Assembly (NCBI GenBank): GCA_022795075.1
Contig: JAAWGB010000001.1
Coordinates: 16,383-80,382, forward strand
Reading direction: 5' to 3'
Source: Clostridia bacterium
GTDB lineage: Bacteria; Bacillota; Clostridia; TANB77; CAG-508
Length of the DNA: 64,000 nt
The notes beneath the pieces are model-generated. The model was not told the origin of the DNA. It searched no databases and was given only the letters and a program-made list of their open reading frames with translations. This document shows positions 6,760 to 53,060 of this stretch, piece by piece (the first letter of the stretch is position 1; every line of letters starts with the position of its first letter). The position numbers were made by a program, and so were the translations under genes.

Positions 6760-7290
6760 ATGGAAGAATGGATAAATTTTAATAGACCAGAAGAGGAAGT
6801 TAATTTACTATCTCCACTTACATGGGCATATGTTGGAGATTGTGTATATGATTTATATATAAGAACGAAATTAGTCAATCAAACAAACTTAAAACCGCAT
6901 AAATTGCATATTGAAACAATAAAATATGTCAAAGCACGAAGTCAAGCAAAAATTCTTGAAACAATACAGGAGCAATTAACAGAAGAAGAAAAAAATATCG
7001 TAAGACGTGGCAGAAATGCCGAAAGTCATCATTTGCCTAAAAATTCAAATGTTCAAGAATATAAATATGCTACAGCTTTTGAGGCTTTAATTGGCTATTT
7101 ATATTTAACCAAAAAATCAAAAAGATTAAAAGAGATTTTAAATTTTGTAGGGGACAATTGGGGACGGTTCTTGATTGCTCCTTTTTTTGTGTGTAAACTG
7201 GCACTTGGAATTTTCCTTCCCTTAGCTTGGGGAGATGCTTGCAACTTTAAGGGTATAGTAATTTTAAAACTTAGATTCGCTTCAAGCTAA
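6760..7290 (+). CDS. mrnC: Mini-ribonuclease 3 (Mini-III), with the ORF running on into a repeat arm
   Basis: LTWAYVGDCVYDLYIR and EALIGYLYL are Mini-III motifs. The last ~45 codons (from ~7150) lie inside the foldback-repeat arm, so the native C-terminus was probably altered. Confidence 0.75.
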   Translation: MEEWINFNRPEEEVNLLSPLTWAYVGDCVYDLYIRTKLVNQTNLKPHKLHIETIKYVKARSQAKILETIQEQLTEEEKNIVRRGRNAESHHLPKNSNVQEYKYATAFEALIGYLYLTKKSKRLKEILNFVGDNWGRFLIAPFFVCKLALGIFLPLAWGDACNFKGIVILKLRFASS

Positions 7291-7520
7291 TTTTCGAAAA
7301 ACTTCTAAATTTATTTTATGGCACCCTTTCAAAACAAGTTTTGAACATTTTCCATAAAATAAATTAAGAATTTTTATCTCAATTACTTTCGATTCATCTA
7401 AGTTTTAAAATTACTATACCCTTAAAGTTGCAAGCATCTCCCCAAGCTAAGGGAAGGAAAATTCCAAGTGCCAGTTTACACACAAAAAAAGGGGCAATCA
7501 AGAACCGTCCCCAATTGTCC
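7152..7520 (+). repeat. Palindromic foldback repeat, copy 1 (arms 7152-7277 and 7396-7520; core ~7278-7395)
   Basis: The ~126-bp arms are inverted copies of each other with a single mismatch. The core is shared with the copies at 10.7, 33.8 and 52.9 kb. Confidence 0.85.
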
Positions 7521-7584
7521 TAAAAAATTAGAATAGTAGTTGACGAAAAGAAAAAAAAGTGATATAAGTAATAAGTACGAAAAA

Positions 7585-7659
7585 GGCCCCTTGGTCAAGC
7601 GGTTAAGACGCCACCCTCTCAAGGTGGAATCATGGGTTCGATTCCCGTAGGGGTCACCA
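7585..7659 (+). tRNA. tRNA-Glu (anticodon CTC)
   Basis: Cloverleaf GGCCCCT...GGGGTCACCA with encoded CCA. The anticodon loop is CTCTCAA. Confidence 0.85.
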
Positions 7660-7771
7660 CAATATATTTGGAATTGATAAATAAAAATTAAAAGGGAGTA
7701 GCTTTTTGGTTACTAATCAACAGTCGCGATATGAAAATATCTGGTTAGTAAGGCTATATTAGTCAAGCAAG

Positions 7772-7810
7772 ACTTTTAAAAGGATAATAGTTCCTTTTAA
7801 AAGTTTTTTT
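7772..7810 (+). terminator. Rho-independent terminator
   Basis: 12-bp stem acttttaaaagg/ccttttaaaagt followed by a T-run. Confidence 0.6.
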
Positions 7811-7907
7811 GTTAAACAAAGAATAGTAAAAGAAATACAGAATCGTAAATATAAGAAGTATAATAACAAGCAAAAGCGTAAAAAATATAAAAAAGGAGTG
7901 GTTTAAT

Positions 7908-50838: not shown

Positions 50839-51002
50839 ATTTTAGAACGATAACAGTTTTCTTATAAAAATTGTCTAAAAATGTTGCAAAAAGGATTTTG
50901 TTAAGATATAATCACAATAGAAAAATAAAAGTGCTGTTAGTTTGAAAAAATTGTAAATATTTATTTTTTTGAACAAAATAAGCCAAAGAAAGGGGAATAT
51001 AA

Positions 51003-51752
51003 ATGGAAGAAAACAAAAAGGAAACAAAACCAGTAGAACCAACAGAAGAAAAGAAAGTAGAAGCAGTAAAAGAGGAAAAAATGGAAGAAAAAAAAGTAGA
51101 TAAAGTAAAAGAAGAACCAAAAAACGAAATAAAAAAGCAAGAACCATCCAAAGCTACTAATAAAAAAGTAGAACCAACTAAAAAGGTGAAAGTAGAAAAC
51201 AGCAAAAAAACTAATAACAATACTATTATAATCGGAGTTGGAGTGCTTATTGTAGTGGCAGTTGCTATTATAATTAGTATGGTATTCATGAAACCTTCTC
51301 CTAAAAAGGCAGTAGAGGATTCATTTAATCAATTAAAAGCAGGAACTTATGCACAAGAAATGTTGGCTGGAATTATGCAAGGGGAAGACAATGTAGAAGC
51401 AGAAGCACAAAAATTATGTTTTGAAAAATTACAATGGAAAGTTTTAAGTGAAAAAGAAGAAGGAGAAACAGCAAAAGTTGAAGTAGAAGTTACCAATAAA
51501 GATTTTCAAACAATCATGTCAAATTATATGCAAAAAGCATTAAAAGCAGCATTTAGTGGAAACACAAACCAAGATGAAATGTCAAATTATCTAATGGAAG
51601 AATTAAGAAATGAAGAAGTTCAAACAGTAACTAATACACATACCTTAACATTACAAAAGCAAGATGGAAAATGGGAAATTACAGATGAAGAAACATTTGT
51701 AAAAGCTGTATTACCAGGTTTGTATGAAGCAATCAGTGCATTTAGTAAATAA
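51003..51752 (+). CDS. Hypothetical membrane-anchored protein (Lys/Glu-rich N-terminus, one TM, globular C-terminal domain)
   Basis: ORF with RBS aaaggggaatat. No recognisable family. Confidence 0.45.
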   Translation: MEENKKETKPVEPTEEKKVEAVKEEKMEEKKVDKVKEEPKNEIKKQEPSKATNKKVEPTKKVKVENSKKTNNNTIIIGVGVLIVVAVAIIISMVFMKPSPKKAVEDSFNQLKAGTYAQEMLAGIMQGEDNVEAEAQKLCFEKLQWKVLSEKEEGETAKVEVEVTNKDFQTIMSNYMQKALKAAFSGNTNQDEMSNYLMEELRNEEVQTVTNTHTLTLQKQDGKWEITDEETFVKAVLPGLYEAISAFSK

Positions 51753-51785
51753 AATGTTTCCAAAATATTGAAAATGTGTTAAAAT

Positions 51786-51845
51786 AAAAACAAAATTCCA
51801 CAAACATACTAAGAATGTTCAGAATGTGGAATTTTTGTTTTTTTA
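51786..51845. terminator. Hairpin terminator shared by convergent genes
   Basis: aaaacaaaattccaca ... tgtggaattttgtttttttt. Confidence 0.5.
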
Positions 51846-52672
51846 TACAATTGACAAATATTGCAATCACTACATAAATTAACTTTATTTTCAAATACTA
51901 ATTGTAAAGTATTAATAAATTCATCCATGTAATCATCAACTAGATGAATATAAATCTTTTTGGGTAGTAAAGTGAGTAATGTATTTAGGATATAATCATT
52001 AGTAGAAAAAGTAATATCACTTAGATATTTAGCTTTAAAAATATCATCATTTACTACTATCAAATTTTTATTCTCATCTAATAAAAACGATTCTGAAGAC
52101 GAAAACACAATATGCACTAATTCACAACCATAATCTTGTGAATTAATATACAATTTTAATAAAGAGATAAATTCCAAATACTCTTTTTCTATAACAAAAT
52201 GATTAACAGCATCTGTAACAATTGTGTCAAGAAAAGAAGAATAACTTTTTAACCTAAAATTAACAAAGCCATTTAATACAATTGACTTATGAACTTGCAA
52301 AAATTGATAAAAAACGTTATATAACATTTTAAACTTTTTATCAAAAAGATTTGAAAAATCATCAGCCATAATATCAAAGCAAGTTGCTAAAATTTTATTT
52401 CTTTCAATTGTATCAAAATAAAAATAATTTTGTAATATCAAGCGTTTTAGCAAATCTTCTTCTAGTTCGTCAATTACTAAAAAAGCTAAAATAGATGAGA
52501 CTTTAGACAAAAAAAGAGAATCGTTGTTACCCCAATAATGAATGATAACATTTTTATAAGCTTTAAATTCGTTTTCAGAAAAACAAATATTTTCTAATTC
52601 TAAGTTTTGAAATTCATTTAGTAGATATTTTATTAAATCAGAATTATTTGTCTTTATACATAGTGATCTCAT
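51809..52672 (-). CDS. Putative sporulation protein YtxC-like
   Basis: Size, composition and motif pattern resemble the YtxC family. Weak call. Confidence 0.4.
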   Translation of the reverse strand: MRSLCIKTNNSDLIKYLLNEFQNLELENICFSENEFKAYKNVIIHYWGNNDSLFLSKVSSILAFLVIDELEEDLLKRLILQNYFYFDTIERNKILATCFDIMADDFSNLFDKKFKMLYNVFYQFLQVHKSIVLNGFVNFRLKSYSSFLDTIVTDAVNHFVIEKEYLEFISLLKLYINSQDYGCELVHIVFSSSESFLLDENKNLIVVNDDIFKAKYLSDITFSTNDYILNTLLTLLPKKIYIHLVDDYMDEFINTLQLVFENKVNLCSDCNICQLYKKTKIPHSEHS

Positions 52673-52823
52673 AAAAAAATTCCCCTTTCCAACATAACTA
52701 GTATCTACTAAATTTCTAAAACTTATACATTATAGTATGCGGATAGGAAAAATTTGTGCAATTGTATCATGGGGGATTCATTATTATTATTATTATTATT
52801 ATTTATTTTTTTTCATATTTTTC

Positions 52824-53060
52824 TTCAAGAGTTTTGGGGAGTATGCTACTAAGATAAGATATATCAATTTTAAAAATCAGATTCGTTCAAGACAATCTTC
52901 GAAAAACTTCTAAATTCATTTTATGGCACCCTTTCAAAACAAGTTTGAACATTTTCCATAAAATGAATTTAGAATTTTTATCTTAGATTGCTTTCAATTC
53001 ATCTGATTTTTAAAATTGATATATCTTATCTTAGTAGCATACTCCCCAAAACTCTTGAAG
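52824..53060 (+). repeat. Palindromic foldback repeat, copy 4 (60-bp perfect inverted arms)
   Basis: Arms 52824-52883 and 53001-53060 are exact reverse complements flanking the conserved core. A (TTA)7 tract lies at 52781-52801. Confidence 0.85.

Follow-up and report, generated by a model that had tools for sequence, protein, structure and literature searches.

What keeps the arms of a long bacterial hairpin perfectly paired when their sequence changes from one copy to the next? The question is raised by a 64,000-nt stretch of DNA from an uncultured, gut-type Clostridia bacterium (GenBank assembly GCA_022795075.1, contig JAAWGB010000001.1, positions 16,383 to 80,382; hereafter the window, with positions counted from its first letter). 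An initial inspection of the letters alone (the sequence-only reading) had noticed a family of intergenic palindromic repeats here, with a conserved core and copy-specific inverted arms, and had attributed it either to a structured RNA or DNA element or to palindrome growth by template switching. Our analysis indicates that these repeats probably form a non-autonomous fold-back family of mobile DNA, the arms of which would be homogenised by template switching during replication.

The window, which has about 28% G+C and in which the plus strand is both the coding and the leading strand throughout, contains four full copies and one core-deleted copy of the repeat. A 22-mer of the core, GGCACCCTTTCAAAACAAGTTT, occurs four times against 0.01 expected, and a search of the window found core ends only at the places reported. 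In each full copy, a core of about 120 nt, itself an imperfect palindrome, is bracketed by inverted arms of 36-125 nt with 94-100% complementarity. Copy 1 (7152-7520, plus strand, 369 bp) has arms of 125 nt (7152-7276 and 7396-7520; 99% complementary with one mismatch) around a core at 7277-7395, which carries one additional T and has its invariant 48-nt apex at 7313-7360. Copy 2 (10675-10867, minus strand, 193 bp; arms 10675-10710 and 10831-10867, core 10711-10830) and copy 3 (33732-33924, plus strand, 193 bp; arms 33732-33768 and 33888-33924, core 33769-33887) have shorter arms of 36-37 nt that are 94-97% complementary, and copy 3 separates xseA from xseB. Copy 4 (52819-53064, plus strand, 246 bp) has a core at 52883-53000 between perfect arms of 64 nt (52819-52882 and 53001-53064), which reach 88 nt at 90% complementarity if extended into the core's own inverted repeat; an (att)n run lies directly to its left at 52779-52805. 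Copy 5 (16384-16486, minus strand) consists of 41-nt arms (16384-16424 and 16446-16486, 98% complementary) and a 21-nt loop at 16425-16445, gaattgaaagtaattgaacga, in which both core ends are joined at a TCAA microhomology. This fits the loss of the core interior from what was once a full element, by deletion between two TCAA microhomologies at the foot of the core hairpin. All five copies have the segment GAATTGAAAGTAATTG, with 0-3 mismatches, and about 5 kb of sequence beyond one window edge holds no further copy. The sequence-only reading was therefore right about the four long copies with their common palindromic core, the fifth short member, the nearly perfect pairing within each copy and the shared end segment; its arm sizes needed only small corrections (from 126 to 125 nt in copy 1, with one mismatch as reported, and from 60 to 64 nt in copy 4).

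Folding turns every copy into a single long hairpin with z-scores from -12 to -31 (as DNA: copy 1, -174 kcal/mol and z = -31; copy 4, -22; copy 5, -13; copy 3, -12). To describe conservation we aligned the cores of eight full copies, four from the window and four from loci retrieved elsewhere (L001, L002, L003 and L005). Conservation declines outwards from the apex through the outer core to the arms. The 48-nt apex, ATTTTATGGCACCCTTTCAAAACAAGTTTGAACATTTTCCATAAAAT, has a pairwise identity of 0.99, with two of its 48 columns variable; the outer core reaches 0.83 on the left (14 of 36 columns variable) and 0.80 on the right (17 of 37); and the first 15 nt of the arms fall to 0.47 and 0.50, with 14 of 15 columns variable on each side, meaning that they are unrelated. 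The apex is composed of a 6-bp tip stem, a fixed 6x6 mismatch bubble (CACCCT versus CATTTT) and a stem of 9-11 bp. The core has a second bubble at its middle and a badly paired foot (TCG..C..GC versus TTC..C..), and its mismatch bubbles are identical and retained in all eight copies. Four core pairs have changed on both sides with pairing kept (alignment columns 31/130, 42/117, 54/105 and 55/104). At the junctions between arm and core, pairing of the arms continues as far as the core itself, with no unpaired loop remnant in nine copies.

We also considered some further readings and set them aside. The apex could encode a 12-codon peptide, MAPFQNKFEHFP, but its ATG is lost in copy 3, its frame is shifted in copy 1 and it has no ribosome-binding site. 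The stretch AATTTTCGAAAAACT in copies 1 and 4 resembled a streptococcal difSL site, but is not conserved in the remaining copies. Asymmetry between G-T and A-C mismatches was considered as an indicator of the folding strand, for which the mismatches are too few.

The comparison with related genomes shows that whole arm-core-arm units are insertions, with empty sites in relatives at three loci. The copy 3 site is empty in four relative loci (L008-L011), where the xseA-xseB spacer is 87 bp (in relatives with XseA 93% identical) or 24 bp (XseA 87% identical) and contains neither arm nor core. At the copy 1 site, between the genes for Mini-RNase III (Mini-III) and tRNA-Glu, the whole 369-bp unit is absent from L016/L017 and L022/L023; in L016/L017, the end of the Mini-III gene (..VVDEIKK*) overlaps with the tRNA-Glu promoter TTGACG. 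L016 also lacks an element at the copy 5 site. The empty-site sequence of the relatives shows no resemblance to either arm of copy 1 or of copy 3, which indicates that the arms arrive with the core and are not copied from local flanks. The palindrome growth envisaged in the sequence-only reading is thus not supported at sites 1 and 3 in the form of copying from local flanks, and that reading had not foreseen the mobility of the entire unit.

The insertion has left its mark on the host genes. Copy 1 lies at the end of the Mini-III gene, and the window open reading frame (ORF; 6760-7290) encodes 176 aa, of which the last 46 residues are encoded by the arm; the native protein has about 131 aa in most of 120 homologues among the matches listed. 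The gene has lost about five native terminal codons and gained a hydrophobic tail of 46 residues from the copy 1 arm. Since this tail is frameshifted in the strain contig L014, it is probably not under selection. The flanks of copy 1 tentatively suggest a target duplication of 9-18 bp: the possible left copy is aaattttgtag (7140-7150, plus strand), which still encodes the native Mini-III ..NFV, and the possible right copy is gaatagtag (7531-7539, plus strand), just upstream of the tRNA-Glu promoter TTGACG. The empty site of L016 reads gaatctagtag followed directly by ttgacg, and both window flanks of copy 1 keep a version of gaatctagtag. The flanks of the other copies held no convincing duplication. 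The idea that the element of copies 2 and 3 continues past its arms was rejected, as flank similarity was non-significant in three of four comparisons and the fourth rested on a single 8-mer (nominal p ~0.016). A more distant relative (contigs L018-L020) has a Mini-III gene of 86% nucleotide identity, no nearer the window than the element-free L016. Yet each of its contigs ends, at the same junction, in 32 nt that match the beginning of the copy 1 arm with 100% identity (P ~0.008 under neutral divergence), which suggests either repeated insertion at the copy 1 site or horizontal spread of the allele.

How the arms relate to one another is informative about their history. The sequence-only reading had taken the arms of copies 1 and 4 to be unrelated, and this proved wrong: the inner 68 nt of the copy 1 arm (7209-7276, pairing with 7396-7463) are homologous to the copy 4 arm over its entire length, with none of 500 shuffles, and none of 300 in a second test, scoring as well. 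In local alignment, about ten substitutions and five indels separate the two, and each is mirrored in the partner arm. The outer 57 nt of the copy 1 arm (7152-7208) are found only in this copy, show no homology to the copy 4 arm and are complemented by 7464-7520 save for one window-specific substitution. They contain attggggacggttctt, which is the loop of a REP (repetitive extragenic palindromic)-like unit, atgtccattggggacggttcttaatggacat, and a 16-nt exact match of the outer arm lies in the loops of such units in L016. Copy 1, a nested arrangement that had gone unnoticed, is therefore a unit of the copy 4 type around which lies another palindrome, of 57 nt and with a REP-like motif. The related arm proposed for copies 2 and 3 and the short copy stood for the first two, which are about 90% identical, with two differences that occur in both arms of the copy carrying them; the similarity of the copy 5 arm to that of copy 2 is marginal (5 of 300 shuffles). 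All remaining pairs of arms are unrelated or marginally similar, so that only the copy 1 inner/copy 4 and copy 2/copy 3 pairs are significant. No arm occurs in an arm-only version in about 400 kb of related DNA.

REP-like units with GGGGAC-containing loops, often as inverted doublets resembling REPINs, are scattered in the related Clostridia genomes (L016 7490-7640 and 9940-9985; L002 3270-3349; L010 6359-6470 and 11925-12022; L001 150-256).

The clearest indication of how the arms stay paired comes from strains that carry copy 1 at the orthologous site. Two contigs, L014 (98.5% identical to the window over 1.26 kb) and L015, cover the left arm, and L028 (97.6% over 5 kb) covers the distal 55 nt of the right arm together with the whole of copy 2. 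In the window, both copy 1 arms read ...tttttttgtgTGTaaactggc... (gtgTGTaaac). The left arm in L014 and L015 reads ...tttttttgtgCAaaactggc... (gtgCAaaac), and the right arm in L028 is the exact complement of that variant. The difference, a three-base substitution-plus-deletion, lies in the outer arm, and each arm is read from a separate contig. A complex change mirrored in both arms at one orthologous site reads as the signature of templated copying from arm to arm, and one strain carrying both mirrored variants would be the parsimonious reading. Template switching has been reported to homogenise the arms of inverted repeats, to make multinucleotide changes and to invert spacers (PMC8604942, PMC8794818, PMC7202029). 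Fresh changes that are not mirrored also occur. The only arm mismatch of copy 1 (7178 t on the left, 7494 g on the right) is a window-specific change of the right arm, as strain L028 has a at the position matching 7494, and the left arm of copy 2 is one A shorter in the window, which is its sole difference from the L028 orthologue. The part of the sequence-only reading that invoked template switching thus gains support as a DNA mechanism.

The same observations bear on whether the repeats encode structured non-coding RNAs or act in cis as RNA hairpins, for instance as substrates of RNase III or stabilisers of 3' ends, in which selection on the RNA fold would make the arms co-vary. As RNA, the fold is indeed very strong (-73 kcal/mol, z = -12.4), the core stems show double-sided compensatory changes, and all copies lie 5-80 nt past a stop codon and are probably transcribed by read-through. 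Even so, we regard this explanation as very unlikely. RNA selection would leave G-U pairs and mismatched intermediates, whereas the three-base complex change is mirrored exactly and arms of 64-125 nt are perfect Watson-Crick duplexes. Moreover, the copies are insertion polymorphisms, arm length ranges from 36 to 125 nt, and the core runs with the flanking genes in copies 1 and 3 but against them in copies 2 and 4. The copies have no promoter or terminator in common: scans found no consistent promoters within the elements or at their ends, and although copies 2 and 3 have TTGACA at their outer ends and the apex has a TTGAAC/TTGAAA pair, these come with poor -10 boxes or a spacing of 18-19 nt. 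Rfam returned no family match at gathering thresholds, which only two tRNAs in the window pass, and once the E-value limit was relaxed, the repeats matched nothing but generic plant miRNA-hairpin models, at 36 bits against a threshold of 211. The structured-RNA option of the sequence-only reading is accordingly disfavoured.

Bidirectional transcription terminators or insulators, kept between genes by host selection, are another function that strong hairpins just downstream of stop codons bring to mind. In all ten members, an A-run followed by a clamp of 3-6 nt containing G/C stands beside the core, with the mirror image (clamp, then T-run) on the opposite side, and the core-deleted copy 5 retains exactly this terminator-like stem. 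A scan for consensus intrinsic terminators nevertheless found none, because the 'loop' would be the whole core. Relatives do without the hairpin at the same sites, one of which lies within the xseA-xseB operon and would be a harmful place for a terminator, and the invariant 48-nt apex and conserved bubbles would be left unexplained. We therefore consider it very unlikely that termination is what the repeats are selected for, while a mobile hairpin may plausibly terminate or insulate transcription as a side effect.

The explanation that we prefer, a mobile fold-back family with arms homogenised by template switching, would work as follows. The functional and selected module would be the core of about 120 nt, chiefly the 48-nt apex with its fixed bubble. 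We infer that this apex, on folded single-stranded or cruciform DNA, is recognised by a protein that acts in trans and is encoded outside the window, since a conserved apex with a fixed bubble is the pattern expected where a protein binds a folded strand by both its sequence and its structure. The arms would need only to pair, and would travel with the core as one unit; their diversity would derive from units nested inside, or having captured, other palindromes, as copy 1 exemplifies. During replication, the nascent strand would fold on the stable core hairpin, and its 3' end would then copy the arm already made instead of the parental template. Such an intramolecular switch would rewrite the arms and not the core, since the core is copied before the switch, and the mismatches of the core would persist because function needs them. 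Inversion of the spacer by template switching would explain why both core orientations are found.

Several points count against this explanation. If switching erases mismatches, the bubbles in an old, immobile copy need selection or a strong position dependence to survive. One G-T mismatch in copy 2 is common to both strains, implying that homogenisation is episodic and not fast. The left arm of L014 and the right arm of L028 come from different samples, no single molecule having both, and ectopic conversion from an unseen paralogous copy could have changed both arms at once. The sample is limited to eight or nine full copies, since assemblies made from short reads break in the arms. No transposase, integrase or HUH gene lies in the 64-kb window or beside the other copies, where all neighbours are housekeeping genes, and no RAYT gene is among the called genes of the window and the fetched loci; the chemistry of mobilisation is therefore a guess. 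Finally, a target duplication is arguable at copy 1 and invisible at copy 3 when compared with L008/L010, so that no transposition signature is established.

In the rival explanation that we rank as the strongest, the core alone would be a conventional small mobile element that targets the apex of existing hairpins (terminators, REPIN-like doublets or palindromic MITEs, that is, miniature inverted-repeat transposable elements), the arms would be older palindromes of host or repeat origin, and the mover of the outer palindrome would later shift the composites in the manner of a Russian doll. There is precedent for insertion of this kind, as IS1397 and ISKpn1 insert into the loops of REP units. 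Copy 1 is exactly a copy-4-type unit within a further 57-nt palindrome with a REP-like motif, many long perfect hairpins without the core are present in these genomes, and a second, unrelated centre (family B, 42345-42425; L012 11212-11364) likewise has differing arms. The outward fall of conservation is also what nesting would produce, with the youngest component inside and the oldest outside. What holds us back is that arms without a core were found at none of the three empty sites and in none of the roughly 400 kb of related DNA, and that nine copies have no loop remnant between arm and core. Copies 2 and 3, in addition, share both arm and core at two unrelated loci, so that this composite at least moved as a unit. 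On balance, we treat the insertion of the core alone as possible, though doubtful.

It is also conceivable, though we think it unlikely, that the element has no ends defined by sequence, and that a conserved, imperfect hairpin nucleates template switching, repeatedly rewrites the adjacent DNA into perfect arms and moves as whatever is paired at the time. If so, the family would be a self-repairing palindrome defined by structure and able to swallow neighbouring repeats, as copy 1 would have done with a REP-like unit. The same rule would then hold for other centres, including family B and a third fold-back at 37730-37913.

These two additional fold-backs deserve description in their own right. 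Family B, found in the window at 42345-42425 and in L012/L013 at 11212-11364, has the centre taactcccaatatcg.acagtctgtaa...acagactgta.ctcat.ggtcccc and no match in Rfam at gathering thresholds. It has a conserved centre and variable arms, short in the window and 29 nt in a relative of 84% identity, where it fills the xseA-xseB spacer. The fold-back at 37730-37913, upstream of an ABC transporter gene at 38004, has arms of 26-34 nt (91-96%) and a centre of 116-132 nt with its own hairpin of a 25-nt stem; its Rfam hits are at chance level only. A 56-nt intergenic direct repeat, aaaaaatatataaa.tttttgattaaaataata..., occurs in promoter-proximal position at 42425-42480 and again at 55828-55883 with 84% identity. 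A small conserved hairpin motif, ggaaagttctc.gaactttctatcatataaa, is present at 42476-42510 and in L016 at about 10690-10730, upstream of different genes, and may be an operator or leader element. Elsewhere in the window, an ORF at 4448-5788 joins a KilA-N DNA-binding domain at the N-terminus to a serine hydrolase or alpha/beta-hydrolase domain at the C-terminus, an unusual fusion; the syntenic L016 has a glutamine amidotransferase gene in its place.

The repeat family extends beyond this genome. A single scan of 185,579 species-representative genomes yielded two more copies, L001 (source 'uncultured Clostridium sp.') and L002 (source 'Clostridia bacterium BRZ_GB bin19'), each set among housekeeping genes, in L002 between purL and purB, and each with its own perfect or near-perfect arms unrelated to the others. 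A scan of JGI metagenomes added L003, with two copies of which one is truncated by the contig end, and L005, the arms of both differing again, as well as L004, which together with L025 represents the copy 4 locus with the same copy on an independent JGI contig 99.8% identical to the window. Contigs with ATPase homologues from relatives of 78-90% identity (L021-L024) contain no element. One candidate from the 20-mer scan (L006, 199-570) was dismissed as a chance hit on an unrelated contig, which has a palindrome with 184-nt arms (93%) and (at)n repeats. Searches of plasmid and phage collections and of viral contigs were negative, and we found no described family of this design in the literature searched; taken with the Rfam result, the claim that the family is undescribed holds as far as we tested it.

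Palindromes are a known product of amplification and of long-read chimeras, so that fold-back artefacts of sequencing or assembly might come to mind. This explanation is scarcely credible: the same copies or parts of them recur in independent NCBI metagenome-assembled genome (MAG), ENA, Logan and JGI assemblies (L004/L025, L007, L014, L015 and L028), and complete hairpins were assembled in L001, L002, L003 and L005. Assembly does affect how often the repeats are seen. Short-read contigs stop inside or at the arms (L007, L014, L015, L018-L020 and a 3,270-bp contig of P0241), which means that copy number in MAGs is certainly under-estimated, and systematically so, as the elements break short-read assemblies exactly at their arms.

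Where does such a family belong among known systems? The kind is already known, as bacterial non-autonomous palindromic mobile DNA; what appears new is the inverted pattern of conservation, the length of the arms, the nested copy and the mirrored change. There is a close likeness to REPINs, hairpin-forming doublets of REP units mobilised by RAYT transposases (Y1 HUH enzymes, encoded by a single-copy gene), with which the family shares that it is short, non-coding, extragenic and multi-copy, folds into one long hairpin, persists vertically and has no internal transposase, and the lineage studied here likewise possesses REP-like units with GGGGAC loops as inverted doublets. Compensatory changes across the hairpin are common in REPINs (PMC3116915), as they are in this family. 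However, the ends of a REPIN (the REP 16-mers) are conserved and its spacer is free, whereas here the centre has an identity of 0.99 and the ends about 0.48, and the arms reach 125 nt. Among the hallmarks that PMC3733652 gives for REP-RAYT systems is a GTAG or CGTC tag beside the palindrome. In this family, GTAG adjoins only the left end of copy 1, L018 has GTGG at the same junction, and the tag is absent from the other copies.

Other bacterial palindromic repeats, including ERIC/IRU, Correia/NEMIS, RUP, BOX and RPE, are among those treated in a review (PMC2229807). None of these showed sequence similarity to our family in the libraries searched. ERIC is about 120-127 bp long, such repeats are intergenic imperfect palindromes near gene ends, and insertion of RPE can alter the 3' end of a gene. 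The core described here is about the size of ERIC and is an imperfect palindrome, intergenic near gene ends and able to change the 3' end of a gene. Several traits are those of MITEs, namely units of 193-369 bp in multiple copies, polymorphic for presence and absence, with a sole ORF (the 12 codons of the apex) that is broken in copies 1 and 3. Yet what defines a MITE family is that its members have the same terminal inverted repeats and a direct target duplication of fixed length, and here the termini vary by sub-family (ATTTTYCTTC, CTGTCAAC, TAAAGGCAAG, TGACCAAAAAG and others).

Template switching at quasipalindromes matches the mirrored change, the perfect arms and both core orientations through arm homogenisation, multinucleotide change and spacer inversion, respectively, but it is a process of mutation in general and not an element family, and has mostly been reported for short repeats; in the present case, a dedicated conserved hairpin would nucleate it and it would act over arms of 36-125 nt. 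The attC sites of integron cassettes are imperfect hairpins of varying length with conserved unpaired bases, in which structure outweighs sequence, and they have conserved outer ends, a variable centre and a place in cassette arrays beside an integrase gene. Our family resembles them in the weight of structure over sequence, the conserved unpaired bases and the variable length, and differs in having variable outer ends, a conserved centre and housekeeping neighbours. PATE, derived from IS200/IS605, has sub-terminal hairpins at both ends, no terminal inverted repeats and no target duplication, and inserts 3' of a fixed tetra- or pentanucleotide with strand bias relative to replication. The present repeats have one central hairpin in place of a hairpin at each end, no oligonucleotide shared by their flanks was found, and core orientation is 3 to 2 across a region of uniformly positive GC skew.

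Taken together, the comparison suggests that the family works most like REPINs and palindromic MITEs, yet departs from what defines them, in that its ends are not conserved and its centre is. REP, REPIN and MITE families are all recognised by conserved ends; this family reverses the rule, with a conserved centre and arms of nearly any sequence that pairs. The mirrored multinucleotide difference between strains at one orthologous site suggests that copying from arm to arm, beyond selection, keeps long bacterial hairpins perfect. If the centre is the recognition site of a hairpin-binding enzyme, the family would signal the existence of a new mobilisation system among uncultured Clostridia.

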